DNA of 64,000 nt from positions 24,356-88,355 of the forward strand of contig JBAZXG010000002.1 of NCBI GenBank assembly GCA_041660005.1, in the 5' to 3' direction. The position numbers were made by a program, and so were the translations under genes. Shown piece after piece: positions 4,368-58,279 of the stretch. The notes beneath the pieces are model-generated. The model had not been told where the DNA came from, ran no database searches, and saw nothing but the letters and a program-made list of their open reading frames with translations. This stretch comes from Patescibacteria group bacterium. GTDB lineage: Bacteria; Patescibacteriota; Patescibacteriia; GWA2-46-9. Position 1 is the stretch's first letter. Each line of letters begins with the position of its first letter.

Positions 4368-4395
4368 CTGCTTGAGGGAAAGTCCGCCACCGTTA

Positions 4396-4480
4396 AAACT
4401 ATGGCGGACAGCCCTTTCTCAAAACGTCTGGCGTAAGCCAGCCGCCGTTGAAACTATGGCTGGCTCGCCAGCCGTAACTT
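4396..4480. repeat. family-3 repeat: two tandem hairpins with conserved loop CCGTTRAAACTAT; second copy 31129..31212
   Basis: 85 nt about 90% identical between the tRNA-Arg and tRNA-Ala loci; both followed by agtgaaggc then a tRNA 3' end sequence. Confidence 0.7.
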
Positions 4481-4490
4481 TAGTGAAGGC

Positions 4491-12444: not shown

Positions 12445-12798
12445 CCTTAAAATGAAAGCGTAGCAAGGCGCGGCTAGTTACCACAACACCCAAGGAACCT
12501 GCGAGTGAAAAAATTATGAGTACGTCGGCCGTAGAATCCCGACGCCATCATTGTTAATACGTCAATGAATCGGGATCCCGACTTCTCGTCGGGACTTCTG
12601 GGTAGCTTTCCTGTTTCTACTATTTGCAATATGCTATTTGCTATTCCTGTTTTCCTTAACGTCTTGCTCGCGAGTGAAAAAATTATGAGTACGTCGGCCG
12701 TAGAACTTTGTTCGCTGACGCACGGAATAATTTTTGAACGACCTCATGCTGAGGGAAAGGAATATTAAGGAAAACCGGGCGGTTTTCCTTAAAGTCTT

Positions 12799-12814
12799 GC
12801 CGGAGGAGGGACTC
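12799..12814 (-). repeat. direct copy of 16 nt of the tRNA-Leu 3' end (lacks CCA), start of family-1 element (12799..12940)
   Basis: gccggaggagggactc identical to 12975..12990 in tRNA-Leu. Confidence 0.75.
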
Positions 12815-12941
12815 CGCTTCGCTAGAACCCTCGTCGCTACGCTCCTCTCTGACACCTTGCGGTTTCAGTACTTCCACTGCGGGAAACCTCCCGGTTTCCC
12901 GACCCCATCCCCGGGTTCGAGTCCTGCTCCAAATACCAAAA

Positions 12942-12970
12942 AGTCCCCGACGAAATCGTCAGGGACTTTT
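12942..12970. terminator. hairpin AGTCCC..GGGACT plus T-run between family-1 element and tRNA-Leu
   Basis: aagtccccgacgaaatcgtcagggactttttg. Confidence 0.55.
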
Positions 12971-13057
12971 TGGTGCCGGAGGAGGGACTCGAACCCTCAA
13001 GCCCTTGCGGGCACAGGGTCCTAAACCCTGCGTGTATACCAGTTCCACCACCCCGGC
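12971..13057 (-). tRNA. tRNA-Leu (anticodon TAG), class II with long variable arm
   Basis: manual fold: GCCGGGG acceptor, anticodon loop TT-TAG-GA, variable arm GCCCGCAAGGGC, TTCGAGT T-loop, CCA encoded. Confidence 0.85.
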
Positions 13058-18750: not shown

Positions 18751-18857
18751 GTTCTGCATTGACCTTTTTGTCATTCACCCTTATGCTAATAACAGCAGAA
18801 TTATATCGTAGCTGCCAACCCTTAGCTCCCACCGGGAGATCGAGAGGAGGTGATACC

Positions 18858-19250
18858 ATGAAGAAACAACTCATCAAACGACTCGCAGCAACAGGCGTCG
18901 CCATCGGCATGATGGCGCCTTTGGTTGCTTTTGCTCAGGGCAGTGACCTCAACAACTCCCTTGATCTTAATAACATCGGCAATGAACTCGGTCTCAGCCA
19001 AGAGACGAACGTTAAAATTGTCGTAGCAAGAATTATTCGCGTCCTCCTCGGCTTCCTCGGTATCGTCGCAGTATTAATCGTACTTTACGGCGGATTCCAA
19101 TGGATGACTGCAGCAGGTAACGAAGAACGCGTTTCATCCGCTCGCGCCACTTTAACGGCTGGCCTTATCGGTCTCGTTATTATTTTGAGCGCTTACGCTA
19201 TCGCTAGCTACATCATCACCACGATTCTCGACGTCACTTCGGCAAACTAA
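18858..19250 (+). CDS. VirB2/TrbC-like pilin paralog 2 (ORF track 18759..19250; start set at MKKQLIKRL after RBS GAGGAGG)
   Basis: YGGFQWMTAAGNEERVSSAR loop motif between two hydrophobic helices. Confidence 0.65.
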   Translation: MKKQLIKRLAATGVAIGMMAPLVAFAQGSDLNNSLDLNNIGNELGLSQETNVKIVVARIIRVLLGFLGIVAVLIVLYGGFQWMTAAGNEERVSSARATLTAGLIGLVIILSAYAIASYIITTILDVTSAN

Positions 19251-19329
19251 TAGTTCATTGAGTAACTAGAGAGTTAGCTACACCCCTCGCCTTTTTGGGC
19301 AGAGGGGTGTAGTATTATGTACATAAAAC

Positions 19330-19731
19330 ATGTCCTGGTCAGCACGCACAACTCTTCGAGCCCTGTCGCTTACCTTACTGTTGGCTACTGTTTTAGTCGC
19401 CGTACCGATCTTTGCCCAAACGTCAGATCCTTCGTACGGACTTAACAAAACAGCAACAGAAGCTAAACTGAACGTCAGTCAAAATTTAAATCAAGTCATC
19501 GGTGGCATCATTAAAACGACGCTCAGTATTGCGGCCATACTGTTTATGATTACCATCCTTGGTGCCGGTCAAATGTGGTTGGCCTCAGAAGGTAACGAAG
19601 AAAAAATAGAAAAGGCGCGTGGCATTATTTTTAACGCGGCAGTGGGTTTTATGATTACCTTTGGCGCCTACCTCGGCACTGATTTTATATTAAACGCAGT
19701 TTTCTCAGCAGTTGGCATTGGCAGTAAGTAA
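19330..19731 (+). CDS. VirB2/TrbC-like pilin paralog 3
   Basis: GAGQMWLASEGNEEKIEKAR motif. Confidence 0.65.
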   Translation: MSWSARTTLRALSLTLLLATVLVAVPIFAQTSDPSYGLNKTATEAKLNVSQNLNQVIGGIIKTTLSIAAILFMITILGAGQMWLASEGNEEKIEKARGIIFNAAVGFMITFGAYLGTDFILNAVFSAVGIGSK

Positions 19732-20162
19732 TGGAAAATATGAACAAAGGATTCTCTCTCGCATTTGTTACAGTAACTTCGCTCGTTTTTATTATTGCGG
19801 GCATTCAACCGTATGCGGTCAATGCAAGCGGTCCAAGTGGTCTTTCTAACCTCGTTAAAAATAGTTTCCAAGAAGCCGGCAACGCCGCAGGGCTCAAACC
19901 TAGTACTAACGACTTGTCAGTACTTGATCTCTTTGGTCTCTATGTGGCCGTAGCCCTTGGCTTCATTGGGGTTCTATTCCTTGTACAAGTAGTGCATGGC
20001 GGCATTCTATGGATGAGCGCCGGTGGCAATGAAGAACAGATTACGCACGCACGGAAAAAAATTCTAAACGCAGGCATAGGAGCAGCTATTGTTTTTGCCT
20101 GCTTCGTCTTTACCGTTTTCATTATGACGCAAATCGCAACCACGGTTGGGGTACAATTTTAA
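19731..20162 (+). CDS. VirB2/TrbC-like pilin paralog 4
   Basis: HGGILWMSAGGNEEQITHAR motif. Confidence 0.65.
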   Translation: MENMNKGFSLAFVTVTSLVFIIAGIQPYAVNASGPSGLSNLVKNSFQEAGNAAGLKPSTNDLSVLDLFGLYVAVALGFIGVLFLVQVVHGGILWMSAGGNEEQITHARKKILNAGIGAAIVFACFVFTVFIMTQIATTVGVQF

Positions 20163-20619
20163 TATGCAAAATTCTTCAAAATTCTTAACAGCGACCGCAC
20201 TCTGCTTGCTGCTCTTTGCCCCACTGGCAACCGCGCAGGCCACCACTGGTTTCCGTTCATCCTGTGACACGAATCAAATTCAAGGGTTTGGCGCAGGGTT
20301 AAGACGTGTGGCATGCGACGCTGGTCTCATATCTTCAGCTGAGGGTGGGGACTCAATCAACGAAGACACTATTATTCAAATTTTTGGGAGTGTTATAAGC
20401 TTGGTTTTTGGCTTTGTTGGAGTTGTCTTTGCGGTTTTGACCATCTATGGTGGCTACCTCTGGATGACGGCTCGCGGCAATGAAGAGCAGGTGCAGCAGT
20501 CGCAAAACTACATTCGTAACTCAGTCATTGGTATCATTATTGTGCTCGCTGCTTTCTCTATCACCCAGTTTATTATTGCGCGTCTTATTTCCGCGGTTTC
20601 CCAAACATCAGTATTATGA
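20146..20619 (+). CDS. VirB2/TrbC-like pilin paralog 5
   Basis: YGGYLWMTARGNEEQVQQSQ motif. Confidence 0.65.
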   Translation: MGYNFNMQNSSKFLTATALCLLLFAPLATAQATTGFRSSCDTNQIQGFGAGLRRVACDAGLISSAEGGDSINEDTIIQIFGSVISLVFGFVGVVFAVLTIYGGYLWMTARGNEEQVQQSQNYIRNSVIGIIIVLAAFSITQFIIARLISAVSQTSVL

Positions 20620-21029
20620 AATCACCTTCCTTGTGGAAAAGCATTGTTAACGCAGCAATCTTACTTTCCTTGCCAGCTGCTGCGGCTGCTGACACCAACA
20701 GTTCTTCTGGTTTTGAAGCAGTGCAACATAACCTCGGAGTTCTTCAAACCTTTGTCATTGGCGACCAAACACCGCAAACACCACAAGAGATTATTGCTCG
20801 CGTCATAGGCATTGCCCTTGGCCTCATTGGCATCGTCTTCGTTATTCTCATGATCTACGGTGGATACCTTTGGATGACCGCTCGCGGCAATGAAGAGCAG
20901 GTCAACAAAGCGCGAGATTTAATTATTCAATCAATTATTGGTGCTGTTATTGTCTTTCTCGCCTATTTTGTCACCGCCTTCGTCGTACAACGAGTAGGAG
21001 AAGCGGTCTTTGAACCAATTTTCTATTAA
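20616..21029 (+). CDS. VirB2/TrbC-like pilin paralog 6
   Basis: YGGYLWMTARGNEEQVNKAR motif, 18 nt identical to paralog 5 over the loop. Confidence 0.65.
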   Translation: MKSPSLWKSIVNAAILLSLPAAAAADTNSSSGFEAVQHNLGVLQTFVIGDQTPQTPQEIIARVIGIALGLIGIVFVILMIYGGYLWMTARGNEEQVNKARDLIIQSIIGAVIVFLAYFVTAFVVQRVGEAVFEPIFY

Positions 21030-21447
21030 TCATATGAGCATGAAAAAACTAGTAGCGAGCTCTCTTCTCTTTTTCGTGCTCATGGCAACAGGGGTCTCTT
21101 TTGCTTCAGCTGCTGTTGCACCACTGGACGAAATTTATCATAACTTGGGGCCGATTGCTAACACCTACGGACAGAGCTCTCTCCTGGACTCCCAAAACAC
21201 GCAACACGCACTAGTAGTGCGAGTTGCTCGAGTTATTAATGTCGCTCTTTCACTTCTCGGAATCATTTTTTTAGTACTCACCATCTACGCTGGTGCACGT
21301 TGGATGACGGCTCGAGGTAATGACGAACTAGTAACAACGGCTCGGGATACCTTACTCAATGCCCTTATTGGACTTGTTATTATTTTTGCCTCTTACGCCT
21401 TTACTACCTACCTGGTAACAAAAATTCTACAGGGAACAATTGGATAA
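21010..21447 (+). CDS. VirB2/TrbC-like pilin paralog 7
   Basis: YAGARWMTARGNDELVTTAR motif. Confidence 0.65.
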   Translation: MNQFSINHMSMKKLVASSLLFFVLMATGVSFASAAVAPLDEIYHNLGPIANTYGQSSLLDSQNTQHALVVRVARVINVALSLLGIIFLVLTIYAGARWMTARGNDELVTTARDTLLNALIGLVIIFASYAFTTYLVTKILQGTIG

Positions 21448-30174: not shown

Positions 30175-30618
30175 TTAACGGTTGCGTCGAACCTTCAAAT
30201 ACTCCTCTACTCCCGTCAGCCATCCACCTTCAAAGTACTTTGCAGGATCAAACGTGTCGATTGAAACCCAGAGCATTTCTATATGCAGATCAGAAAGGTG
30301 AATGATTCCACTTTTCAAAACTCCGGCATACCCAAGAGCAAAGATTCGCACGGTGGGTAAACCGGGCACTTGCTCAACTCTTTGGTGTCGCATAAAAACT
30401 TTTGCTTCACCAATCTCGTACTGAATCTCGTCCCCCAATTCCTCCAACATCTTCCTCTTAATGACCTCGTCCAGAGAAACGGTGAATTCATCCTTTCTTA
30501 TTCTGCCGCCGGGTAAATCCCAATCACCAAATTTATCGCGAAGGATAAGTAGTTTGCCGTCCTTTTCTAAGAAGACCTTAACGGCAACAAAGTAGGTATC
30601 TTTTTGTTCAACGCTCAT
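30175..30618 (-). CDS. NUDIX hydrolase
   Basis: Nudix box GGRIRKDEFTVSLDEVIKRKMLEELG. Confidence 0.75.
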   Translation of the reverse strand: MSVEQKDTYFVAVKVFLEKDGKLLILRDKFGDWDLPGGRIRKDEFTVSLDEVIKRKMLEELGDEIQYEIGEAKVFMRHQRVEQVPGLPTVRIFALGYAGVLKSGIIHLSDLHIEMLWVSIDTFDPAKYFEGGWLTGVEEYLKVRRNR

Positions 30619-31075
30619 TGTATAACTTATGTTTCAAAAGTGCGTGTGCTCGCGTCAAAAAAAGTGCGGCATTCCCCCACACAAACGGTAGCCATGCCGG
30701 AAAACCCAAGACATTATAATTCTTGTAACTCCAAATTCCATACTGAATAGCCAGAGACTCTGACAGCGGACCAAGTACGAAAGCAATGATATATAAATAG
30801 AATGCGGCCCTGTTTCTCTCAACGGCAAGCATGAGCAAACTAATTATGCTAAGAAGAAAAACAAGTACAATAGTATTCCTCCACAAGAACAAAACAAACA
30901 AAATTGTAACAACTGCTAGAATAAAATTGATCAGCGATTTTTTCCGTTCGCTATACATAGACAATGTAATAATGAATGACTTGCCATTTGTCCTTCGGCT
31001 ATCTGTGGTCGCTTCCCTCGGTGAGACACCTCGGGATCTTCGACAGGATATTTCGACCGAGAAAGAACTAACCAT
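30608..31075 (-). CDS. hypothetical membrane protein
   Basis: 155 aa, 4 TM helices. Confidence 0.4.
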   Translation of the reverse strand: MVSSFSVEISCRRSRGVSPREATTDSRRTNGKSFIITLSMYSERKKSLINFILAVVTILFVLFLWRNTIVLVFLLSIISLLMLAVERNRAAFYLYIIAFVLGPLSESLAIQYGIWSYKNYNVLGFPAWLPFVWGNAALFLTRAHALLKHKLYNER

Positions 31076-31128: not shown

Positions 31129-31212
31129 AACTATGGCGGACAGCCTCAACTCAAAACGTCTGGCGTAAGCCAGCCGCCGTTGGAACTGTGGCTGGCTCGC
31201 CAGCCGTAACTT
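31129..31212. repeat. family-3 double-hairpin repeat (second copy, see 4396..4480)
   Basis: aactatggcggacagcc...gccgtaactt about 90% identical to the copy beside tRNA-Arg. Confidence 0.7.
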
Positions 31213-31262
31213 GCCACCTCCGCCAAAGTAGCCAAAGGCTACGGCGGCTGGATAGTGAAGGC

Positions 31263-31282
31263 TGGTGGACCTGGGGGGAATC
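31263..31282 (-). repeat. direct copy of the 3' terminal 20 nt of tRNA-Ala (incl. CCA), start of family-1 element (31263..31410)
   Basis: tggtggacctggggggaatc identical to 31460..31479. Confidence 0.8.
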
Positions 31283-31420
31283 CGTCACTCCGCCCGTCGG
31301 CGGAGCTCCTAGAACCTGTCGCTTCGCTCTTTCAAACCCATCGGTTTGAATAATTCCGCCGCAGGGAAACTCCCGTTTCCCCGACCCCTTTCCCGTGTTC
31401 GATTCCCTCGCAGTATATCA

Positions 31421-31460
31421 AAAAATAAATTAGCTGGCATATAGCCAGCAATTTATTTTT
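31421..31460. terminator. bidirectional terminator hairpin GCTGGCatatAGCCAGC flanked by A/T runs
   Basis: aaaaataaattagctggcatatagccagcaatttattttt. Confidence 0.6.
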
Positions 31461-31533
31461 GGTGGACCTGGGGGGAATCGAACCCCCGACTAATCCATGC
31501 CATGGATTCGTGTTACCGCTATACCACAGGCCC
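31460..31533 (-). tRNA. tRNA-Ala (anticodon GGC), G3:U70 present
   Basis: manual fold: GGGCCTG acceptor with G3:T70, anticodon loop AT-GGC-AT, TTCGATT T-loop, CCA encoded. Confidence 0.75.
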
Positions 31534-43378: not shown

Positions 43379-43515
43379 ACATCTTGAATGTTTTCCTTTA
43401 AACTATATTTTCATGAGGGCAAATGGGGCGCTCGATAAAAAACATGGAATTCCTTTTAGGAACTAACTGACTTTTCGGTGGTCACGACTACGTCTTGACC
43501 TATTTTATTGATGTC

Positions 43516-43702
43516 GGAGAGGGAGGGATGCTTCGCTTGTGGAACCCGTCGCTACGCTCTTTCAAACCCAGTTGCTTGGCGCGACACTTACTGATCTTTG
43601 ATTTTGCTGTTGATGTCAGTTTGAATAATTCCGCCACGGGAAACTCCCGTTTCCCAGCCTGTCCGCCTTCGGCGGAACCCCTTCCCGGGGTTCGAATCCC
43701 TA
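43516..43702 (-). repeat. family-1 element (copy A) beginning with a 14 nt copy of the tRNA-Ser 3' end (43516..43529); marks the left border of the island
   Basis: ggagagggagggat matches 58195..58208 of tRNA-Ser; body shares cgctctttcaaaccca..gtttgaataattccgccRcgggaaactcccgtttccc..ggttcgaatccct with the Ala and Leu loci; contains a 50 nt insertion in the P1 loop. Confidence 0.7.
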
Positions 43703-43926
43703 CCAACTATTCTAAGTGGTCTGTGCATTACCCTACAAGAGAGGAGGATTCGCCTACAAGTCGCCTCGCCTTCCGGCTTGGCGCTCGCAGGCCGCCCCTC
43801 GCGGTCTTGCTCGCCCAATTGCGTCGCAAGACATCGCTGCGGTCTTCGAATCCCTCACGCGAGCAAAGCAGTTTGCTCGCTCCTCTCCTCGGCGTTTTTA
43901 TCTTTGATATTTTAAGGAAACTCCTC

Positions 43927-44150
43927 GGAGAGGGAGGGATTTCCGCGTTCCTCGTCGCCAGCATAGCGACTCGTCGCTCTGTCCGGGGCAGCGCTGAAAG
44001 CTGCGCCCGCTCACTTTCATCGGCGCTCGCTTCATTCGCTTTGTCTTCCGCCAAAACTCATGGCTCGCTGCTGCCCGTTCGAATCCCTCTCCATCTTACC
44101 AAAAATGAGCTGTGCCGCCCACGCACACGTGGGCACCACAGCTCATTCGG
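43927..44150 (-). repeat. family-2 element (copy B) beginning with a second 14 nt copy of the tRNA-Ser 3' end (43927..43940), followed by a long hairpin
   Basis: body shares ctctgtccggggcagcgctg...catcggcg...ctgctgcccgttcgaatccct with the element next to tRNA-Lys; 11 bp stem hairpin aatgagctgtg/cacagctcatt at about 44103..44149. Confidence 0.7.
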
Positions 44151-44412
44151 TGTGTCGCGGTCTAGAACCGCCCCATCGCTAGTATTGTAAGGGGTTTCAA
44201 GGGGTTTGGCGATTCAGCGTTTTTAACCGTCTCGGTCGGGGTCTGCTTGAGAAGAGCGAAGCTGAATGCCAAAAAATGCCAAATATTTTCACCTGCCATA
44301 TTATATACAAATAGCGTACTCCTGCTCAGGATACGCCTATTACTGTTATTAAATGCGGATTAGCACCCTCCTCTCTCATTGAGCGCACCACAGACTTTTG
44401 GCATTTGACGAA

Positions 44413-44892
44413 TCAGATCACTCGGCACTCCATTAGGTGACGACAGAGCGCTTCTTTGCTCACTAAGTATTTTTTTGCCAAAAATTCAAGATCGGGATTT
44501 CGTGAGAAGTCTCCTCTAATAAACGCGAGCGGTATCAGGAGCTCGGCTCCAAATTGATAGGCTTCCCGTTCTGCATTACTGTCAGGGTTTTGCCCACAGA
44601 CGTGCCCCATAAGGAAGTGTCCAATCTCGTGAGCAATCGTGAGTCGCCGCCGTACCCAGGCCGGCGTTGGGTTGAAGCCAATCGTCGGCTGACCATCGAT
44701 CATGAGAAGTGCACCATCAACGGTTTCAAACTCAACGCGCATGATATCAAGGCCACGCTGTGCCTTGAGGTGATTAATGACCTTCCACAGCGAGACCGGA
44801 ATTTCATTCACCCCGGAATCTTTAAAGAGCTTTCTGGCGAGTTTCCTCGCCCCACCTACATTCGGACCAAGCTGTACGTCATCATTTTCCAC
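44413..44892 (-). CDS. ImmA/IrrE family metallo-endopeptidase
   Basis: HEIGHFLMGH (HEXXH) motif, 159 aa, downstream of and overlapping XRE gene. Confidence 0.75.
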   Translation of the reverse strand: MENDDVQLGPNVGGARKLARKLFKDSGVNEIPVSLWKVINHLKAQRGLDIMRVEFETVDGALLMIDGQPTIGFNPTPAWVRRRLTIAHEIGHFLMGHVCGQNPDSNAEREAYQFGAELLIPLAFIRGDFSRNPDLEFLAKKYLVSKEALCRHLMECRVI

Positions 44893-45211
44893 GGCGTTTT
44901 TTAGCTAGCTCGATGAAGCGTAGGAGAGCTTCCTTGTCTTTGGCCGTCAGGTCCTTATCAGCCCTGAGAGCAACTTTGATATCCACGGGGCGACTCTCTT
45001 GCCCAAGGAAGTAGGCAATGTCTCGATGCAACGCTTTAGCAGCTTTGTGTAGGTCTTCGGATCTGAGTTTGCGTTCTCCCGCCTCAATAAGCGAAATGGC
45101 TGTAGCTGACTCATAGTCCAAGGCCTTTGCTAATTGCGCCTGAGACAGTCCGGCCGCTTCACGCGCGGCCCGCAAACGAGCCCCAATTTGAACATTCACC
45201 TCATCTTTCAT
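44882..45211 (-). CDS. XRE family HTH transcriptional regulator (ImmR-like)
   Basis: LRAAREAAGLSQAQLAKAL HTH. Confidence 0.75.
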   Translation of the reverse strand: MKDEVNVQIGARLRAAREAAGLSQAQLAKALDYESATAISLIEAGERKLRSEDLHKAAKALHRDIAYFLGQESRPVDIKVALRADKDLTAKDKEALLRFIELAKKRRGK

Positions 45212-45328
45212 ATTGATATTCTAAATCAATCAGAATGATTTGACAAGGAATTTGCCACTTTGCTAAACTAGATATATCATTATGTTTATATGGATTAGAC
45301 AGCCCTTACCCTACCTAACAACTCCCTT

Positions 45329-46591
45329 ATGAAAATTGAACATGTCAACGTAGGCGATCTTAAACCCTCAGTCTACAATCCCAGAAAGTGGGATGAGAAA
45401 ATTATCGCGGATATGACCGAGAGCATCAAGCGGTTCGGTCTGTGCGATCCCCTGATTGTGAATGGTGCCCCCGACAGAAAGAATATCGTAATTGGTGGCC
45501 ATCTGCGCCTGAAGGTTGCGACCAGCCTCGGATTCACCGAGGTGCCAGTCGTTTATCTGAACATTCCAGAGATTGAGCGTGAGCAGGAACTCAACCTTCG
45601 TCTCAATAAAAATCTCGGTAATTGGGACGACGAGCTTCTAAAGGCGTTCGACATGAACCTTCTGCTTGATGTCGGATTCACCCCCGACGAACTGAACTTC
45701 CACTTCGATGACGTCCTCGACGTGAGCGACGACGGATTCAACGTCAAGGAGGAACTTGCCAAAATCACAACGCCGGAGAGTAGGCCGGGCGACCTCTACG
45801 AACTTGGACAACATCGACTGCTCTGTGGCGACGCGCTCGATCTCAATAATATCACAAAGCTAATGGGCAACGAGAAAGCGCATATGATCTTCTGCGATCC
45901 GCCGTACAACATCGGTCTTGACTACAGGAATGGCATCGGCACAGCTGGAAAGTACACCACGGACAAGCTCGTAAACGATAATAAAAGCATAAAAGATTAC
46001 GAGCAGTTTATCGAACAATCCTTACAAAACGCCTTGGCCGCAAGTCGTGACGACGTCCATGTCTTCTACTGGTGCGATGAAAAAAATGTCTGGCTTTTGC
46101 AACAACTCTACCAGAAGCACGGCATCACGAACCGGCGGCTGTGCCTCTGGGTGAAAAACAATTTCGATCCTACACCGCAGGTTGCCTTTAACAAGGTTAT
46201 TGAACCATGCGTCTATGGCACCCGCGGCAAACCCGCACTTAACTCTAGCATTAAGAACCTGTCGGAAATCATGAACCAAGATGTGAACTCTATTGGTATG
46301 TACGACGACCTCATGAGCATCGTCCAGCTCTGGCTCGTGAAGCGCGACAACACCGCCGACTATGAGCACCCCACTCAAAAGCCAATCACTCTAAATGAGA
46401 AGCCGATGAAGCGCTGCAGTGCACCTGGAGAAATCGTACTCGACTTCTTCGGCGGAAGCGGATCGACACTCATTGCTGCCGAGCAGTTGAAACGCCGCGC
46501 TTTCCTCGTTGAGCTCGATCCCATATTTTGCGATCTCATTATTCGACGCTATGAACACTTCACCGGCAACCACGCCAAAAGAATCCAATAA
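45329..46591 (+). CDS. ParB-like nuclease domain fused to beta-class DNA methyltransferase (N6-adenine or N4-cytosine)
   Basis: N-terminal ParB/Srx fold (IVIGGHLRLKVA); motif IV DPPYNIG then motif I FFGGSGSTLIAAEQLKRRAFLVE at C-terminus (IV before I = beta class). Confidence 0.8.
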   Translation: MKIEHVNVGDLKPSVYNPRKWDEKIIADMTESIKRFGLCDPLIVNGAPDRKNIVIGGHLRLKVATSLGFTEVPVVYLNIPEIEREQELNLRLNKNLGNWDDELLKAFDMNLLLDVGFTPDELNFHFDDVLDVSDDGFNVKEELAKITTPESRPGDLYELGQHRLLCGDALDLNNITKLMGNEKAHMIFCDPPYNIGLDYRNGIGTAGKYTTDKLVNDNKSIKDYEQFIEQSLQNALAASRDDVHVFYWCDEKNVWLLQQLYQKHGITNRRLCLWVKNNFDPTPQVAFNKVIEPCVYGTRGKPALNSSIKNLSEIMNQDVNSIGMYDDLMSIVQLWLVKRDNTADYEHPTQKPITLNEKPMKRCSAPGEIVLDFFGGSGSTLIAAEQLKRRAFLVELDPIFCDLIIRRYEHFTGNHAKRIQ

Positions 46592-47333
46592 TCCCTCCGA
46601 CGGCCTATGGCGGCTCGGCAGTCACCGCCTTCTTCGCGGAGACGCCACAAAGAAGGCGGATGTGGACAGGCTCATCAACGGCGACAAAGTGACGCTGCTT
46701 TTAACCGATCCTCCGTACGGTGTTGGGTACGTTGAAGGCAAGCAAGAATTCTTGAAAACAATTCACCGAGGAAACAAATCAAAAAAATTTACTGCCATCC
46801 AAGGAGACGGTGTGGGGGATGACTACTACGACTTCTCACGAAAATGGCTGGAAACGGTTCGGCCTCACTTCAAGGACAAAAATGCATTTTATATTTTTAA
46901 CGGAGACGCGAAGCTCAGAGAGTTCCTGAACGCCCTGCACGACACGGGATACACAAAGTCGGCACTCCTCATCTGGCTGAAGAACCATCTCGTCGTCGGC
47001 CGAAAAGATTTTCACCCGCAGCACGAGCTCATCGCCTACGGCTGGTACGGCAGACACGCGTTTTTCGGCAACAAGGATAGGACGACACTCTTCTACCCCA
47101 AACCGAGCAGCAGCAAGCTCCACCCCACCATGAAGCCACCCGCACTTCTGCGACGCCTCATCTATCACAGCACCAAGCCGGGAGATATCGTCCTGGATTT
47201 ATTTGGTGGTTCCGGATCGACTTTGATCGCCTGCGAGCAGCTAGGCAGACGATGCTTCATGATGGAATGCGACACCTCGTACTGCGCCACCATCGTCGAA
47301 CGATGGCAGAAACTCACCAAGGGAAAAGCATAA
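46509..47333 (+). CDS. beta-class DNA methyltransferase (second, stand-alone; start probably internal Met)
   Basis: motif IV LLTDPPYGVGY, motif I LDLFGGSGSTLIACEQLGRRCFMMEC; overlaps upstream MTase in another frame. Confidence 0.8.
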   Translation: MSSIPYFAISLFDAMNTSPATTPKESNNPSDGLWRLGSHRLLRGDATKKADVDRLINGDKVTLLLTDPPYGVGYVEGKQEFLKTIHRGNKSKKFTAIQGDGVGDDYYDFSRKWLETVRPHFKDKNAFYIFNGDAKLREFLNALHDTGYTKSALLIWLKNHLVVGRKDFHPQHELIAYGWYGRHAFFGNKDRTTLFYPKPSSSKLHPTMKPPALLRRLIYHSTKPGDIVLDLFGGSGSTLIACEQLGRRCFMMECDTSYCATIVERWQKLTKGKA

Positions 47334-47749
47334 CCCTGTCCTCATGTATCACGTCTATGGAAAGTACGGAGGCCGAACATTCGAAAACCATATCAGTGTA
47401 CAAGAAACAAGAATTCGAGGCCTACGTGCTGTGGCGATCGATGCCGTCAATCCTGCGTGGCCAGCCGAGGCACGTCATCGAAAAACTTGGCATCGACGAC
47501 GAGATTGCTATGTCGCTCCTCGACATCAAGAACCAGACCGAGTTCGCCAAGCGGTATGGCATCAAGGATCTCGGGACCCTGACAGACTGGAACAAACGAA
47601 TCGATGAGATGGGCGGACTCATGCGCTACATCAACGCCTGGGCCAAGCGCCTGACTCCGAACGTTATCTCAGCCCTGTACCGCGAGGCCACGAAGAGCGG
47701 ACGGGCCGCCGAGGTCAAAGCCTGGATGGAAATTATTGAAGGGATGTAA
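47252..47749 (+). CDS. putative HTH DNA-binding protein (terminase-small-subunit/Nu1-like helix-turn-helix); probable start at 47360
   Basis: EFAKRYGIKDLGTLTDWNKR resembles wHTH of phage small terminase/Nu1; weak. Confidence 0.3.
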   Translation: MLHDGMRHLVLRHHRRTMAETHQGKSITLSSCITSMESTEAEHSKTISVYKKQEFEAYVLWRSMPSILRGQPRHVIEKLGIDDEIAMSLLDIKNQTEFAKRYGIKDLGTLTDWNKRIDEMGGLMRYINAWAKRLTPNVISALYREATKSGRAAEVKAWMEIIEGM

Positions 47750-47754
47750 ACAAT

Positions 47755-47973
47755 ATGGAGATTGAAGAAAAAAATCTACGGAAAACACTCAGCATAGAAG
47801 AAGCGGCGGGCATTTTGTCTGACACGCTCCGCGATGTGGCCGAGCGCAAGACTACAGTGCGGCGGGCGCTGGTAATGTCGCGCCTGGCGTTGGCACTCTC
47901 CAGAGTACTCGAAATTGCCGACCTCAAAGCTCGCGTCGAGTTTTTAGAGCAAATGTTAAAGAAACGACGCTAA
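47755..47973 (+). CDS. small coiled-coil hypothetical protein
   Basis: 72 aa ORF tightly packed between neighbours. Confidence 0.3.
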   Translation: MEIEEKNLRKTLSIEEAAGILSDTLRDVAERKTTVRRALVMSRLALALSRVLEIADLKARVEFLEQMLKKRR

Positions 47974-47974
47974 T

Positions 47975-49816
47975 ATGGCCAACCTCTCCACCGCTCTGCG
48001 GACCGGGAACCTGACCGCACGCGAACGGTTCCTGCTCCTCATCCAAAACGACATCCAGCGCATGAAGACGGGAAAAGATATCCTGACGACGGCCGACAAA
48101 GCCGCGCTCGAGAATTGGCAAGCTAAAAATAACGTCGAAGCGTCTGAGTGGAACCGCCTGAACGAGGGGTGGAAACACACTGGACGCATGGACATTGAAG
48201 TTGAGTTCGCCTACCAGGAAGCGAACGCCGCACATCTCGCCAAGCTGCCAATCATCATTGAGCTCCTCACCTACCGGGCTGATCGAGAGATGAGCCGCTG
48301 TATCAATGTCCTGAAGCGATTGAAAAAAGTAAACCCAAAAGAAGCGAGCGTGATCATCGCCAAGCAGAAAGCCGCCAAACTCAAAGAAGGCATAGACGTC
48401 GAGTACGCGGTTTACCGGTTGGCCTTCGAGCGCCTCACTCCGGCAGAACAACAGCAAATGAAAGAGCTCTACGGCGACGTTGAAACTGACCATCAGTACC
48501 TCGACCAAGAGGAGGTTATCGCCAATCTGTACGGCAACCAAACCGAGCTCACCCCCGAGGCAAAAGATAAGCTCGCCACGCTGGTAGCCGAACGGAGCTA
48601 TAACGCATTTGCCAAAGAACATCAACTCTTCCATTACTTCGCCTGCATCCCGCTTGCTGAGGTGGCCCGATACTTCATCGCGCTAAAAAATATCATCCTG
48701 CCAAGCGAATCATCGCCTGCAGACGGAAAGGAAAAGGACCCATTCGCCGATCTCAATCAGTGCAACGAGTTGGCTGAAGCATTACAAACGTACGCGACGA
48801 CGCACCACACCACGGTCGAGAAGCTGCTCACGGAAGCGTGCCGCGTCTGGCTCGATGACGGCCTTCTTGAAACTTACACGCCGCTCGTCACGAGCAACAA
48901 TGCCGCGCTTTTTGAGCGGTGGCTCGCGGCCAAAATTGAAGCCAAGACGGTTATAACTCAACACGTTAGTGCTGGTGAACTCATGCTGCGCCATCGTACG
49001 GAGGAAGAAACAAGAAAGGAAAAGCTCTTGAGCAAAGACAGCTACGACCGTGAGTTAGCCACGGCACAAGCAGTACTTGAGGAGATCGGACGGGAGGCGA
49101 CAATCAAAGGAGAGCTTGATGAAAAATCAGCCTTCGAGACGTTCGCCGATCAGGTCATTACTGGCGAGAGTCTCTACGCATTCCCGGGCGACTACGAATT
49201 TGTGAAAAGCTTCAAGGAGCGAGCCGACATATACGACCCCAACCTCGGCATTGTCTACGCGGACGATGATCCAAACCACGCAGGCGAGCACTTGGACCAG
49301 GAACTCCTCATCTGCGACATAACCGACAGCGGCGACGCGAGCGTCTTTAGCCGCTACGGCATGGCGATATCGCTACTCGCAAACATCTTCGATAAAAAAA
49401 TGTTTTTTGAGGAGGTTGCCGAGGACGGAAAACTATTCCTTCACTTCAAGGATTCGCAGATTGAGGAGGCGTTCCGGGCAAGACAACAAAACCTCGTCGA
49501 TGGCTACGCCAAACTCCTCGCCTATCAAGCGGTGTTTAGCAAAGTGGCCGCCATCTACGAGGCCGACCTTGCCTACCACGTCACGGAACGGCTGACGGGG
49601 TTACGCGAAAATATTACCCAGCACAACGAGGCAGTTCAGCAAGCGACGAACCTCGGCGAACGGCTGCACCGAAAAGCAAAGTACGACTTCTTCCGGAGAC
49701 GTGACCGGCTATACTTGAAAGAGGATCTTGTTATAAATATCGATACGATCAAGCCTGACCAAGCAACCATGAAAGAGCACGAAGCGAAGTTGAAAAGGAT
49801 TTTTGGGAACTTCTAA
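47975..49816 (+). CDS. large hypothetical alpha-helical protein (island cargo)
   Basis: 613 aa, no P-loop or known motif recognised. Confidence 0.5.
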   Translation: MANLSTALRTGNLTARERFLLLIQNDIQRMKTGKDILTTADKAALENWQAKNNVEASEWNRLNEGWKHTGRMDIEVEFAYQEANAAHLAKLPIIIELLTYRADREMSRCINVLKRLKKVNPKEASVIIAKQKAAKLKEGIDVEYAVYRLAFERLTPAEQQQMKELYGDVETDHQYLDQEEVIANLYGNQTELTPEAKDKLATLVAERSYNAFAKEHQLFHYFACIPLAEVARYFIALKNIILPSESSPADGKEKDPFADLNQCNELAEALQTYATTHHTTVEKLLTEACRVWLDDGLLETYTPLVTSNNAALFERWLAAKIEAKTVITQHVSAGELMLRHRTEEETRKEKLLSKDSYDRELATAQAVLEEIGREATIKGELDEKSAFETFADQVITGESLYAFPGDYEFVKSFKERADIYDPNLGIVYADDDPNHAGEHLDQELLICDITDSGDASVFSRYGMAISLLANIFDKKMFFEEVAEDGKLFLHFKDSQIEEAFRARQQNLVDGYAKLLAYQAVFSKVAAIYEADLAYHVTERLTGLRENITQHNEAVQQATNLGERLHRKAKYDFFRRRDRLYLKEDLVINIDTIKPDQATMKEHEAKLKRIFGNF

Positions 49817-50029
49817 CTCATTAGTCTACCCGGACCACCTCGAGACCGGACCCAAATTGGTCAACGCCGATAAGGTTTTTGAAGCCTATTTATGATTATT
49901 GAAACAACGTACCCTAAGCACCCTGAAATATAATCTCCCAAACATTAATACCCACATAAGGTGTACGGAGAAAATAGACCACAGAAACGAAGTGTATTCC
50001 GTCCTCCACTTTCCATATTTCAGAACTTT

Positions 50030-51116
<1,087 letters not shown>

Positions 51117-51122
<6 letters not shown>

Positions 51123-51485
51123 ACATCCCCTATAACTAAAGTGCAGCAAGAAATACCGATTGTGCAAAAACTCTACGATCTCTACAAAACCTTCTACGGC
51201 TTCGCCGTGCTTTTTCCGAAGAAAGATAAGTACACACTCGGCGCAAAGTGTGAACAGTACATAATCAACACACTGGAATTGATACTGGCAGCAAGTGCAG
51301 TTACTCCGGCAGAGAAGCTTGGTCTACTACGTCAAGCAAACGTAAAGTTCGATACGCTTAAGGTATTTCTTCGATTATCCCGTGAGATTGGAGCAATCGA
51401 CGCGAAAAAATATCTTGTCCTCCAGAGAGAAATTCAAGAAATTGGTCGCATGCTTGGCGGCTGGCAACGGTCGCTCAGTGCATAA
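51117..51485 (+). CDS. avd: DGR accessory variability determinant Avd (four-helix-bundle protein)
   Basis: 122 aa; KLYDLYKTFYGFAVLFPKKDKYTLG...EIGRMLGGWQRS resembles Bordetella phage bAvd (..EVGRILGSWIAR) and the four-helix-bundle family; start ATG overlaps RT start in palindrome ATGCAT. Confidence 0.75.
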
Positions 51486-51544
51486 TCAACATCGGGGACC
51501 TGTAAGAACAGAATCCCCGAGCCAACTGCTATCGTAGACACAAT

Positions 51545-51663
51545 CCGAGGAAGGACACTCCACCAGAGTAGTTGTCGTTCGCATTCGCAAGATTCGTCCT
51601 GTTGTCGAACTCGAGCTTATCGTCGTTCGGGTTCAGGTAGAGCGAGTACTCAGCGGACTGCCA
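51545..51663 (-). repeat. DGR template repeat (TR)
   Basis: 119 nt about 89% identical to 52085..52203; 12 of 13 differences are at TR adenines (coding strand). Confidence 0.85.
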
Positions 51664-51965
51664 GAATATACCATTCCCCACCGATATGCACCGGCCCTCG
51701 GCCAGAGTTTCCTCTAGCTCCGAGCCTGAATTTTATTCGGTTCATTAGAGAACCCTAGAAAATGGTACGTAGTGTCTACGTGCTCTGCATACGCTCTGGC
51801 AATCAAGTATTTCCTTACCTGACAACTACCAGACTCTGATACATTGATGAGCATGAAGGATTTCGGCGGCCGTGATTAGATGAAGCCAACCACGGTACAT
51901 GAGCCTAATCTCAAAAGCAGTGTAGCATCAGTTCTCGTTTGTTGAAAAATTTTGAAAAAGGAAAA

Positions 51966-51990
51966 GCGGCATGACTGGAAATCATGCCGC
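51966..51990 (-). terminator. terminator hairpin for the DGR target gene (GCGGCATGA/TCATGCCGC), T-run on minus strand
   Basis: 9 bp stem, followed on minus strand by ttttcctttttcaaaattttt. Confidence 0.55.
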
Positions 51991-52080
51991 TGTCCGTAGG
52001 AGGGATCCGGAAGAAAACCGGAAGACCAAAAACCGAAATCCTTGGTCCAAGGTTCAAACTTCCGAAACCCGAAGTCCACA

Positions 52081-52983
52081 CTACCCGAGGAAGGACACCC
52101 CACCAGAGGAGTCGTCGCACGCATGCGCAAGAGCCGTCCTGTTGTCGAACTCGAGCTCCTCGTCGTGCGGGAGCAGGTAGAGCGAGTACTCAGCGGACTG
52201 CCACTGGTAGGCGGAGAGGTCGATCACCGGGGTGTTGTTGTCCCGGCAGATGACCTCTGGCCACATGATGGCTGAGAGGATGGCGTTGAAGCCGTTGAGG
52301 ATGAACCCCTCCGGCAACGTCGCCATCTGCTCACGCTGGGCGTGCACCGAGAATCCCTGCGTTGCACAAGGCAGCTCGATCGTGGCGATCGGACCTTCCT
52401 TGGCGCGAACGAGGAGAAGATCGAGCCGACTCTCCGGCACGACCGTCACTTGCCCTTCGAGCTGACCCCGACGGTGGTTGGTAAAACCACGACCAGGGAA
52501 CTCGGCCTTGTACGCACGCTCGAGCGCCGAGAGAAGAAACTCGAGCATCTGGCCGTGGTCGTGGACAACCATCTGCGGAACGATGATTGGCAGGTGCACA
52601 CCCATCCCGACGTTCACCACCGAGGAATCGTCGAGGATGACCATGAGACGGCCGACCTCGTCCTCGAACCAAGCCGCGTCGGGCAACACGATGTTGCCTT
52701 CGAAGGCGTGATCCATGCGCTCGCGACGAGCTGCGTAGTCAATGACCTCCGGCTGGAGCAGATGGTACGCGCGATTGGCGTCGCAGACCTTGGCCTTGAT
52801 GCCACGAGGTGGAATACGCCGACCGTGACGATCGAAGAACATCGAGATGACCTCTTCGATCGTTACCTTGGCACCGGCCAAGATTGCGTTCACGGCTCCG
52901 AGCCCGTCGCCGCCGTAGACGCATCCCAGCAGATCGATGAGCTTCTCGTTCTGATTCCCTGTCAAAGATCCGTACTTTGCCAT
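52081..52983 (-). CDS. DGR variable (target) protein; VR occupies the last about 40 codons
   Basis: 300 aa, GC-rich; C-terminus ...QSAEYSLYLLPHDEELEFDNRTALAHACDDSSGGVSFLG aligned to TR-encoded ...QSAEYSLYLNPNDDKLEFDNRTNLANANDNYSGGVSFLG (Asn AAC/AAT codons diversified). Confidence 0.8.
   Translation of the reverse strand: MAKYGSLTGNQNEKLIDLLGCVYGGDGLGAVNAILAGAKVTIEEVISMFFDRHGRRIPPRGIKAKVCDANRAYHLLQPEVIDYAARRERMDHAFEGNIVLPDAAWFEDEVGRLMVILDDSSVVNVGMGVHLPIIVPQMVVHDHGQMLEFLLSALERAYKAEFPGRGFTNHRRGQLEGQVTVVPESRLDLLLVRAKEGPIATIELPCATQGFSVHAQREQMATLPEGFILNGFNAILSAIMWPEVICRDNNTPVIDLSAYQWQSAEYSLYLLPHDEELEFDNRTALAHACDDSSGGVSFLG
52085..52203 (-). repeat. DGR variable repeat (VR) at the 3' end of the target gene
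   Basis: see TR; adenine-specific substitution pattern. Confidence 0.85.
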
Positions 52984-53402
52984 TGCTGGCCTCCGTTATC
53001 AGGCATCATGTGCCCGATGTCTTTAGCCAATTCCCTTGGCCGTTGGGGTCTTTTCCTCTACAGGATCAATCTAGAAATACTAGGGAAAAGACATTGCAAT
53101 GTAGCAGAAATGACAGGAAAAGTCAATGACTTTCGGGTGAATATTTAAATGGTTGATTCAATACAATCTGCTTGCACATATCACAATAAATAAAGGCATC
53201 AATAACTCCTAAAGTATAACCACCAAAAATCAGCCGGATGTAAAACATCAATACCCAGGCTTTCGCCTGGGTATTGATCCTAATGTGTATTCTGTGGGAA
53301 CGATGCTTCTCGATGCTCGTTCTTAACGTGATTGAAAATCCGGTGCCGTTTATTGGGTTCGTATAACCTATCCCACGCTAAGTCGGACAAATGCAGCAAC
53401 AC

Positions 53403-53867
53403 TTACCGCTCAAGAATTTGTTTCTTCTTGGCCTGAAATTCTACTTCCGTTAAGACACCCTTATCTCGAAGATCAGCATATTTCGCCAGCTCATCAACGC
53501 CACTAACCGCTGAACCTCCTCCTCGAATCTGGGCTATTCTTGCTTCGATAAGCTCTCTGACTTTTGCAGAGCGTTCATTGTTGTTATTGGTGATATGGAA
53601 GTTAATACTATTTTCGTCAGTGGCGGACTGAAAAAGACCGCTCTTTGCCTCTGAACCACCAACCAAGGTTAGCTGGAGATAGCCGGCAGTCATACCTGCT
53701 TTTTTGAGTTGCACGGCGACAATGGAGCTATAGGGAATTGTTTTTTCGCCTCGCAGCATCATACCGCCAAGGAGGAAACCCTTTACCCCTCGCTTTATAA
53801 CGACGCCAACATCGGTGAGGATAAGCGTTCCGTTATAGCCGCGAAATTCTTCTATTGATTCGTTCAT
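53403..53867 (-). CDS. DUF4429 (PH-like) domain protein with C-terminal SHOCT domain
   Basis: C-terminal LAKYADLRDKGVLTEVEFQAKKKQIL SHOCT motif. Confidence 0.55.
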   Translation of the reverse strand: MNESIEEFRGYNGTLILTDVGVVIKRGVKGFLLGGMMLRGEKTIPYSSIVAVQLKKAGMTAGYLQLTLVGGSEAKSGLFQSATDENSINFHITNNNNERSAKVRELIEARIAQIRGGGSAVSGVDELAKYADLRDKGVLTEVEFQAKKKQILER

Positions 53868-53878
53868 AAAAGAGTGTG

Positions 53879-54895
53879 TTATTTCTCCCAGGTTGTGCCG
53901 TCGGTAAAATGAACATGGTATGGCTCAACCTCGATCTTCGACGTGGTGTCGTGACCAAAGAGACTCCACGCATCCGAACCTGTTTTGCTGGGAGCAATAA
54001 GAGAACCTTGGCTAAGACCATTGAAGACGTTATCTCCCAGAAAGCTGGCGGGCTCCCCAAAACTGTTAAACATCCTGATATGCAGCTTGTATGCGTCGAT
54101 GGTTTTGTCTGACACATTCTTAATCGTCACATTCGCTTGAGGCATACCAATGATGTCTTTGGTAACACTGCTTTTCACAATCTCGAGAGGAATTGGTTCT
54201 TGTGCGATTGTTGCGGCTGATGGCTTAGACGAAACTACTGGCGTTGTTGTCGCCGTAGATGAATCTAATTTATTTGTGCTAGTTGATGAAGCAGCGGCTA
54301 CAATCACCAGAACAACCAAGACCGCGACCGTGATTGCAGTCTTATGCCGCGTTATGTTTTCCTCCCACTTACTTAAGTGGGGTTGTGCCAGTGGTTCTCC
54401 TTCCATACGATGCGTGTATCGAGAAGCAAGGAGGTGCATAATAATACCGCCGGACAACCCAACAACAAACCCTAGTCCAACCGCTAATGTCCCGCCTATC
54501 GCCGTACCAATAGCTGCGCCAGCTTGCGCTGCCCCGCTCGTGTTCCTCACCGCCGCCGCGCCGACATGAAACATTATAGCGAGTGCAGAGATGGGCAGAA
54601 GAAAGAAGCCAATCTCTGTGGCCCGAAACAAATCCTTCAGTACTTTATTCTTGTTCGTATCCGACCACACATGCAGAATTAGCAGAGCCCAAAAAATTAT
54701 AAACCCGAGACCCATGGCTCGGTTTCCAGACATCCACGCCCAATTTTGAGTAAATACAGCGGCAGGAAGGAGAGTGGCCAATATCTTCGTTGGCAAGAAT
54801 CGATTCTTCGATTGAGGAGTGTGTTGCTCCATAAAAATAAAGAATAAAAAAATAAGCACCTCGGGTATGACGAGACGCTTTGGGTATATACACAA
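53879..54895 (-). CDS. membrane protein with 5-6 TM helices and C-terminal extracytoplasmic domain, hypothetical
   Basis: 338 aa. Confidence 0.45.
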   Translation of the reverse strand: MCIYPKRLVIPEVLIFLFFIFMEQHTPQSKNRFLPTKILATLLPAAVFTQNWAWMSGNRAMGLGFIIFWALLILHVWSDTNKNKVLKDLFRATEIGFFLLPISALAIMFHVGAAAVRNTSGAAQAGAAIGTAIGGTLAVGLGFVVGLSGGIIMHLLASRYTHRMEGEPLAQPHLSKWEENITRHKTAITVAVLVVLVIVAAASSTSTNKLDSSTATTTPVVSSKPSAATIAQEPIPLEIVKSSVTKDIIGMPQANVTIKNVSDKTIDAYKLHIRMFNSFGEPASFLGDNVFNGLSQGSLIAPSKTGSDAWSLFGHDTTSKIEVEPYHVHFTDGTTWEK

Positions 54896-55085
54896 AGCCC
54901 CCCGCCAGCGATAGCCTTACGGCTACCCATACCCGTTTCCAGGTATGACCGGTAAGGGTGCTCTGACGAGGAGCCCTTTATTCCTTACCGGTTTTCGGCC
55001 ATGCCCAGAGCGAACTCTGAGTTTAGGCCATACTCAAATTGTGCTCACATGGTAGCAGGGAAACCCCTATAAATAAAGGGTCTTT

Positions 55086-56540: not shown

Positions 56541-56573
56541 GACCACCTTCGTCAGCCAGACTGTCTATTGATA

Positions 56574-58019: not shown

Positions 58020-58189
58020 ATATAAATTTAAGAACAGGTCTATCTTAGCTCAAATCTCACAATAAACAAAAAAGACCGGGTGACCGGTCGTTTTTGTTTT
58101 GGTATGCCAATAACATGCAGTAGCGTGGGGGAACCGTCTCGGTCGCGCTGACCTATCGACTGACTCGGTCCCTCGATACTAAATGTTGT

Positions 58190-58279
58190 TGGCGGAGAGG
58201 GAGGGATTCGAACCCTCGAGGCCCTTGCGGGCCTACCGCTTTTCGAGAGCGGCACCTTCAACCACTCGGCCACCTCTCC
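58190..58279 (-). tRNA. tRNA-Ser (anticodon CGA), class II
   Basis: manual fold: GGAGAGG acceptor, GCCGAGTGGTTGAAGG D-arm, anticodon loop CT-CGA-AA, long variable arm GGCCCGCAAGGGCC, TTCGAAT, discriminator G, CCA. Confidence 0.85.

Follow-up and report, generated by a model that had tools for sequence, protein, structure and literature searches.

What stands behind the tRNA-Ala gene of this Patescibacteria genome, where the end of the gene occurs a second time on the far side of a short structured stretch? The original prediction had described such an element behind tRNA-Ala, behind tRNA-Leu and at 43516..43702, and had offered three interpretations: a miniature integrative element that targets tRNA genes, a conserved attL arm of a family of islands, or a small RNA linked to the tRNA. 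Here we analysed the whole stretch of DNA around this locus (64 kb, called the window) together with matching loci from other genomes. On balance, the evidence favours a non-autonomous insertion cassette that replaces gene ends, belongs to a Patescibacteria-wide family and, we propose, would be moved by a recombinase acting in trans on a two-hairpin core.

Three copies of a structured core in the window

A covariance model (R1), trained on sequences of other genomes together with the window copies, was run on the window with filters off. We found exactly three significant cores, with E = 3e-19 (Ala), 2e-17 (Leu) and 4e-9 (Ser, with an insert in the loop of hairpin P1 spanned), in agreement with the three copies that had been predicted. 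The scores were 84.9 bits for Ala (E = 2.8e-19), 78.0 bits for Leu and 35.3 bits for Ser, the last rising to 48.4 bits when the P1-loop insert was spanned, and all three are far above chance. ARAGORN and Rfam called five tRNA genes in the window, all on the minus strand.

At the Ala locus, the intact tRNA-Ala gene (GGC) occupies 31460-31533 on the minus strand, and the element fills the 197 nt ahead of it on the plus strand. A 20-nt direct repeat at 31263-31282 (plus strand), which runs from the T-loop to the CCA and is read as the reverse complement of the gene, is exactly identical to 31460-31479. It is followed by a variable left linker (31283-31325, plus strand), in which we read from the sequence a hairpin (CTCCGCC-CGTC-GGCGGAG), the letters GAACC, which continue the tRNA sequence past the insert, and then GTCGCTTCGCTC. 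The conserved core (31326-31394, plus strand) consists of hairpin P1 (31331-31338 paired with 31343-31350, loop CATC), the segment TTCCGCCGC, hairpin P2 (31364-31370 paired with 31375-31381, loop TCCC) and the ending CGACCCCTTTCCC, all on the plus strand. Next comes an inverted target copy (IR), GTTCGATTCCC, at 31397-31407 (plus strand). It is the reverse complement of GGGAATCGAAC at 31473-31483 in the tRNA-Ala gene, and it spans the end point of the direct repeat. A G+C-rich hairpin at 31433-31449, which stands between an A-run and a T-run, scored as an intrinsic terminator on both strands.

The Leu cassette (12798-12970, plus strand) has the same anatomy. Its direct repeat (12798-12814, plus strand) is 17 nt long, lacks the CCA, matches 12974-12990 exactly and is followed by the insert CGCTTCGCTA. 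Further along the plus strand are GAACCCTC at 12825-12832, the core at 12844-12912, the IR GGGTTCGAGTCC at 12913-12924 and a hairpin at 12943-12966, after which the tRNA-Leu gene follows (12971-13057, minus strand).

The Ser cassette (43515-43701, plus strand) begins with a 15-nt direct repeat (43515-43529) that recurs exactly at 43926-43940 and, at a distance, within the tRNA-Ser gene (58193-58207; gene at 58190-58279, minus strand). Its core (43556-43668, plus strand) carries an insert in the P1 loop, which had been put at 50 nt and is about 45 nt long. An extra hairpin (43662-43676) and the IR GGGGTTCGAATCCCT (43687-43701) complete it on the plus strand. The Ser copy had been taken for the border of an island. 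Instead, it is the outermost of three stacked cassettes, and a 14-kb island lies further in, between the innermost of them and tRNA-Ser; the copy is therefore not the island's own border.

The original prediction was right that each copy starts with an exact copy of the local tRNA 3′ end, with the CCA included for Ala, and only at Ser does the gene end itself stand far away. Its order of a terminator hairpin followed by the tRNA held at Ala and, as a hairpin followed by the tRNA, at Leu, whereas the Ser cassette is followed by neither. P2 had been described as a 7-bp stem in which the loop alone differs between copies; the loop is in fact TCCC in all three, and the Leu copy has one extra C-G pair. 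The 'T-arm-like' box had been regarded as a hairpin. It is not autonomous, being the reverse complement of the adjacent target, and that is why its middle base is T at Ala, G at Leu and A at Ser. We also rejected a tRNA-like, tmRNA or T-arm hairpin reading of GTTCGAWTCC, as the box follows the local tRNA and the five tRNAs called by ARAGORN and Rfam were the only genuine ones.

A covarying core conserved across Patescibacteria

We scanned species-representative genomes with a degenerate pattern (TTCC...P2) and obtained at least 118 matching stretches, nearly all from Patescibacteria, including Saccharibacteria, Parcubacteria/Paceibacteria, Uhr-, Sung-, Jorgensen-, Kaiser- and Nomurabacteria and similar groups. 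Among the loci listed by the pattern, model R1 recovered 103 sites in 99 loci, all labelled as or likely to be Patescibacteria, and the non-CPR matches L011, L072 and L088 were not recovered by the model. The element recurs in related genomes. Two model-positive loci, L030 and L046, came from bins labelled Bacteriovorax and Gammaproteobacteria, for which mis-binning, a wrong label or rare copies outside Patescibacteria are possible.

The cassettes are protein-less, 150-330 nt long and constant in order: the displaced gene end, a linker whose length varies between about 3 and over 50 nt, P1, TTCCNCC, P2, GACCCCTTCC, the IR (10-40 nt), a hairpin or spacer, and the intact gene end. In 102 distinct sequences, P1 was paired in 96.6% of cells compared with 84.5% in shuffles, and double-sided changes occurred in 186 cells against 44.5 in shuffles, a value that none of 500 shuffles reached. 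When the partners were slid, pairing fell to 33-61%, and in the three outer pairs all four Watson-Crick types occur. P1 is a genuine conserved, covarying hairpin, and the compensatory pattern noted in the window holds in the larger alignment. P2, with a stem of 8-9 bp including a closing C-G pair, is nearly invariant across the family, partly because the search pattern required it; its G-run and C-run shorten in concert. Both P1 and P2 resemble GGGAAAC...GTTTCCC.

The plus strand had been proposed as the transcribed one on the basis of G-T pairs in the T-arm-like box. This call does not stand: the box is an inverted target copy, and of about 900 P1 pairs just 12 are wobble (G-U) pairs when read on the plus strand and 23 on the minus strand, so that the strand of a transcript is not callable from them. 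Folding energy is lower on the minus strand, by about 2.6 kcal/mol for the core and about 5.8 kcal/mol for the whole element, but the minus strand is the G-rich one, and the difference is therefore no evidence for a strand. Coding for a short peptide was rejected, as the spacing from P1 to TTCC (7, 8, 9, 10, 24, 25... nt) is not in multiples of three.

Rfam 15 at gathering thresholds gave nothing over the Ala element, and in E-value mode the best hit was an unrelated leader (16 bits, E = 0.37). We found no description of the cassettes in the literature on Patescibacteria MITEs, integrons and tRNA-flank repeats, and the family is apparently undescribed so far. An origin from phages or plasmids was rejected, as the core had no match in 2.9 million viral contigs.

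Some copies carry nested insertions of 40-90 nt in the P1 loop (window 43571-43614; L024 at about 1790-1835; L112, L087 and L100), and two unrelated loci have an identical insert sequence there (ACCACARGAGTACTTC...GTCGC). L125 and L136 have insertions within P2.

Cassettes stand at gene ends and carry an inverted piece of the target

In 69 of the 123 copies among the matches listed, a tRNA gene on the opposite strand follows P2 at a distance of 15-122 nt, and about 18 specificities occur. The remaining copies adjoin the 5′ or 3′ ends of protein genes. The 5′ ends include the first 20 codons of EF-G (L107) and the N-terminus of L11 (L141); the 3′ ends include the last codons of L11 (L003), of MraY (L014) and of small basic proteins (L005, L016); termini of a dnaX-like gene (L129) and a glycosyltransferase-like gene (L126) are also used. 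In every case the gene body points away from the right side of the cassette. The insertion point lies within the terminal 14-69 nt of the gene: for tRNAs in the T-loop, and for protein genes in the ~20 codons at either end. The left flank has no constant final bases (GA, TC, AT, CC, TG and CG all occur). A single core subfamily occurs at tRNA-Tyr, Ser, Glu, Pro, Lys and Val as well as at protein-gene ends.

The IR stands directly after GACCCCTTCC, and of 104 cases compared, 87 match the intact copy of the gene across the repeat junction. The distance from P2 to the beginning of the IR was 7-14 nt in 48 of the 65 cases scored; the median IR length is 16 nt, and the IR and its target are 3-180 nt apart. 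Where the two repeat copies differ, the IR agrees with the gene-fused one. At 3′-end targets, the IR, the hairpin and the gene end together make one long imperfect palindrome, and the cassette provides a hairpin behind the gene that is often terminator-like. At 5′-end targets, it provides the sequence directly upstream of the start codon. The gene remains intact because the cassette carries its own copy of the gene end.

Stacked cassettes were found at the Lys and Ser loci of the window and at L024, L033, L035 and L065, and repeated insertion produces such stacks. An inserted cassette shifts the original gene end to its far side. At three tRNA-Pro loci that have the core, the IR and the tRNA in common, the hairpin between the IR and tRNA-Pro is entirely different.

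An imported gene end at mraY

We next asked which of the two repeat copies is native. At six protein targets the copies differ at 57 nt and yet at only 5 amino acids. Each copy therefore has a history as coding sequence, in a lineage different from that of the other; a newly made duplicate that then decayed would not show such a synonymous-only pattern. This divergence could also arise if filled alleles move solely by homologous recombination, and it is therefore no proof of a free cassette.

One pair of filled and empty alleles was found, at mraY. In L014 an insert of 278 nt interrupts mraY 66 nt before the stop codon, whereas in L148, L150 and L151, from three samples, mraY runs uninterrupted into a terminator and the next gene. 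The terminator and next gene of the empty relatives stand after the distal repeat copy in L014, and therefore the distal copy is the native end and the gene-fused copy came with the cassette. A simple target-site duplication is ruled out by this synteny together with the synonymous-only differences. The two L014 copies are identical over their first ~22 nt, and the IR maps to this stretch, which is likely to be the place of exchange. In the closest MraY relative (L147, 95% identity), a spacer and an IR-like remnant (TTTGTTTGGCGAATACCTAAAA) follow the stop codon at 2574-2640 with no core, and the cassette may have been lost from this locus by deletion.

By analogy with L014, tRNA-Ala would originally have ended in what is now 31263-31282, and the final 20 nt of the intact gene would have come with the cassette. 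The window genome is, by its closest homologue, related to Uhrbacteria. At the Ala locus, the closest available relative (L145, Uhrbacteria; 73% identity in the neighbouring ABC transporter) has a syntenic tRNA-Ala without the core, so that presence does vary at this tRNA flank. Behind that gene L145 has a different cassette of ~217 nt (3507-3762), bounded by the repeat GCAAATCAAAT(T)TGGTGG, which places the junction at the CCA end and not in the T-loop. Metagenomes gave no match to an empty version of the Ala locus, and look-ups of identical proteins around tRNA-Ala returned only contigs that end at the repeats. In other assemblies of the same strain (L001, L120, L121), one contig starts at the tRNA-Ala 3′ end and two end ~105 nt past the ORF at 30608-31075. 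Independent assemblies break at the repeats, and the cassettes therefore fragment short-read assemblies.

Other elements in the window

Several further elements lie near the cassettes. A cassette of the same architecture with an unrelated core, which we call family 3, is at 43926-44146 on the plus strand (repeat 43926-43940, IR at about 44075-44093, hairpin 44108-44146). It has a paralogue behind tRNA-Lys at 3941-4157, with a displaced tRNA end, a core, an inverted T-arm copy and a hairpin. An exact 20-nt pattern from the family-3 core had no match in the other loci fetched. An 84-nt repeat ending in TAGTGAAGGC, 93% identical between its copies, abuts the tRNA-Arg 3′ end (4397-4490) and the displaced tRNA-Ala end (31129-31262). 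No inverted target copy accompanies it, and it may represent an older tRNA-flank element or one of another kind. Another repeat of ~90 nt (GCGAGTGAAAAAATTATGAGTACGTCGGCC...) is in the tRNA-Lys/tRNA-Arg spacer (4289-4382) and to the left of the Leu cassette (12497-12536 and 12666-12759).

The 14-kb island (44150-58189), between the innermost cassette hairpin and the tRNA-Ser 3′ end, has no tRNA-derived repeat of its own at its junctions. It encodes a large serine recombinase (55086-56540), a ParB-methylase, a second methylase, an M78 peptidase-like protein, an AAA/AbiEii-like ATPase and a diversity-generating retroelement (50517-52983, minus strand). The retroelement comprises a reverse transcriptase ORF (50517-51167), a template repeat (51538-51663) and a variable repeat (52078-52203) at the 3′ end of the ORF at 52081-52983, with 13 of the 15 differences between the repeats at template-repeat adenines. 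The large serine recombinase gene is preceded, at a distance of 56 nt and in divergent orientation, by a LOOT RNA (Rfam RF03000, 90.7 bits; 54910-55029, minus strand). Elsewhere, six tandem paralogous genes of ~140-160 aa (18759-21447) have a conserved block of 27 nt in common, placed identically in every gene, and one of them matches a type IV secretion pilin family.

How the cassette might move

The reading that we favour, by a modest preponderance, is thus a gene-end-replacing cassette moved in trans. In this proposal, a trans-acting recombinase would bind the conserved two-hairpin core, and exchange would take place in the short stretch of identity beside the junction, that is, in the segment complementary to the IR. 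This complementarity, and the fixed distance of the IR from P2, are what led us to propose both the trans-acting recombinase and a fold-back step, in which the duplex formed by the IR and the cassette-borne gene end would serve as a copy of the target site, much like a folded attC site or the attP of CTX phage. Filled alleles would also spread between lineages by ordinary homologous recombination. Of the three earlier candidates the miniature integrative element comes closest, although its restriction to tRNA genes was too narrow, as protein-gene ends are also targeted and a replacement gene end is carried.

The enzyme would have to act in trans. No recombinase, transposase or reverse transcriptase was linked to the copies, and no recombinase family was enriched within 2.5 kb of 120 matches. 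The ORFs near the window copies are housekeeping genes, the window ORFs that were scanned included no tyrosine recombinase, and the sole recombinase in the window is the large serine recombinase inside the unrelated 14-kb island.

Several points weigh against the cassette model. A free or circular form was not seen, and a 180-bp double-stranded circle would be under high strain. The model does not account for the gain, by one core subfamily, of both a new IR and a new gene end for more than 20 different targets, and the differing hairpins at tRNA-Pro are odd if the whole module moves as one piece. At L141, the repeat copies have only ~3 nt in common at the junction, leaving little identity for an exchange.

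A more specific reading, which we consider unlikely though worth stating, is that the core is a handle for a trans enzyme and the adjacent complementary segment of 10-40 nt a DNA or RNA guide that sets the insertion site. If true, this would be a nucleic-acid-guided insertion system, retargeted by changing the segment beside GACCCCTTCC, and the service of one core subfamily to more than 20 gene ends would be explained. A CAST-like fixed insertion distance is contradicted by the 3-180 nt between IR and target. A guide RNA for a TnpB-style nuclease is unlikely, as no ORF is linked and the matching target is intact in the filled allele, so that a guided nuclease would cut its own locus. An IS110 bridge RNA was rejected: IS110 elements are not known to leave long repeats, and no recombinase is linked to the cassettes.

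Alternative explanations

Retargeting with no pre-existing match to the new target, which the cassette model accommodates poorly, is what insertion of the same cassette through an RNA intermediate would allow. A reverse transcriptase supplied in trans would prime on a target nicked behind the hairpin of the gene, snap back on that hairpin and switch template to the 3′ end of a core RNA ending in ...CTTCC; the snap-back would make the inverted gene-end copy, and a staggered cut of the second strand would give a second gene end, which may or may not include the hairpin. Such a route would agree with the fixed right edge of the core, directly adjoined by the IR, next to a left linker varying from ~3 to >50 nt, and with the centring of the long imperfect palindrome of IR, hairpin and gene end on the hairpin loop. 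It would also agree with the inclusion of the hairpin in the direct repeat at several loci (nearly identical at L022, diverged at L019, L074, L081, L104 and L105), and the window does encode a reverse transcriptase. However, none is linked to the copies, poly-A tails are absent, few copies are without the 5′ half of P1, and 5′-end targets have no clear snap-back hairpin. At L014, moreover, the gene-fused copy is a diverged synonymous variant and not a fresh duplicate, so that a later transfer by homologous recombination would be needed. We regard this route as rather improbable.

Less probable again is that the core is a structured RNA or cis element of benefit to the host, either an sRNA ending at the bidirectional terminator or a 3′-end stabiliser or insulator, with the repeats as by-products. 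In favour of this, the two-hairpin core is kept across the phylum with a covarying P1, all five tRNA genes of the window have a repeat element or cassette behind them, the Ala and Leu cores are followed by a hairpin able to terminate plus-strand transcripts, and the mraY transcript of L014 must cross the cassette to reach its native terminator. On the other hand, a scan of the upstream plus strand gave no sigma-70-like promoter, and the near absence of wobble pairs on both strands over ~900 P1 pairs is unusual for an RNA helix. The copies are at non-orthologous positions, one subfamily occurs at many genes, presence varies between relatives, P1 and P2 carry nested insertions, and the same architecture is found in cassettes with unrelated cores. 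The narrower idea of a tRNA-linked small RNA leaves the duplicated gene ends unaccounted for.

The last of these alternatives, and in our judgement the least probable, holds that larger islands or prophages with an integrase lost their interior genes and that the copies, as CIME-like debris, are their decayed att arms. Integrase-mediated insertion classically leaves direct repeats of tRNA 3′ ends beginning in the T-loop, and the repeats here fit this pattern. Stacks of partial tRNA copies occur as they do at island hot spots, and a 14-kb island is present at the same tRNA-Ser. But this island, with its serine recombinase, lies between the innermost cassette hairpin and the tRNA, not between a core and its IR. 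Furthermore, the copies keep the same limits and compact size at more than 120 loci, the core stands beside an integrase or enclosing genes in none of ~140 loci, and viral contigs contain no match. On these same grounds of a compact unit with no interior genes, no enriched recombinase and no viral-contig match, the conserved attL arm of the original prediction is not supported.

Significance

Genomes of Patescibacteria are about 1 Mb in size and are thought to be streamlined. Despite this, every tRNA gene of the window is backed by repeats or cassettes, and metagenome assemblies break there. Protein-less cassettes that alter the ends of essential genes (tRNAs, EF-G, L11, MraY, DnaX-like) are an unnoticed source of genome change in these bacteria, and they can cause chimeric gene ends, annotation errors and assembly errors. 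The arrangement of a fixed scaffold beside a segment complementary to the target suggests that insertion is programmable. Identification of the enzyme would make the mechanism directly testable and could open practical uses; meanwhile, the covariance model and the anatomy described here make the family searchable.

Comparison with known systems

Among known systems, gene-end integrators with tyrosine integrases (P4-like islands, actinomycete pSAM2-type elements, tycheposons) also insert in the 3′ part of tRNA genes, with identity from the T-loop to the CCA, or in gene termini. They likewise bring a replacement gene end, leave the displaced end as a direct repeat and accrete in tandem. The corresponding features, direct repeats of a terminal gene segment and a gene kept whole by the element-borne copy, are present in the window, in the family and at L014. 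The cassettes differ in being only 150-330 nt long, with no integrase or other gene and no coding signal, in the use of one core for more than 20 unrelated targets including the 5′ ends of protein genes, and in having an inverted target copy at a fixed distance from a conserved hairpin. CIMEs, the att-flanked and integrase-less derivatives of ICEs and IMEs, share att-type flanking repeats and the lack of recombination genes, and both would have to be moved in trans or in cis by another element. The cassettes are one to two orders of magnitude smaller, however, and their structured core is conserved across the phylum; no cognate autonomous relative was found in ~140 loci or in viral contigs.

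Integron attC cassettes and the attP of CTX phage (IMEX) are small stacking units that each end in a bulged imperfect palindrome. The cassettes show these features in architecture only, as a terminal imperfect palindrome and as stacks at Lys, Ser, L024, L033 and L035. From these systems we took the idea that a folded single strand mimics a duplex target, and both folding and single-strand exchange are hypothetical for the cassettes. Unlike those of integrons, the arms of the cassette palindrome are local gene ends and not R/L boxes or dif, and there are no GTTRRRY core sites and no intI/attI platform. Where the attP of CTX phage uses XerCD at dif, the cassettes target tRNA T-loops and protein-gene termini.

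PATEs moved by HUH enzymes of the IS200/IS605 type, and REPINs, resemble the cassettes in being ~100 nt long and protein-less, with two similar subterminal hairpins, in the mobilisation in trans that is proposed here, and in that a short DNA 'guide' beside a hairpin could define the site. They have no direct repeats, though, and lie next to a fixed motif of 4-5 nt, whereas the cassettes bring a replacement gene end and have repeats of 14-69 nt and a variable left flank. The pdif modules of Acinetobacter plasmids have sites in alternating orientation, comparable to the cassette order of site, core, inverted site, hairpin and site; the cassette sites, in contrast, are locus-specific gene ends rather than XerC/XerD sites, in a chromosomal context. 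Unlike in MITEs, the only inverted repeat of the cassettes is derived from the target and specific to the locus, and the repeats of 14-69 nt are no fixed-length duplication, one copy being imported. While it fails the defining features of both, the family is closest to integrase-type gene-end integrators in its behaviour and to integron cassettes in its architecture.
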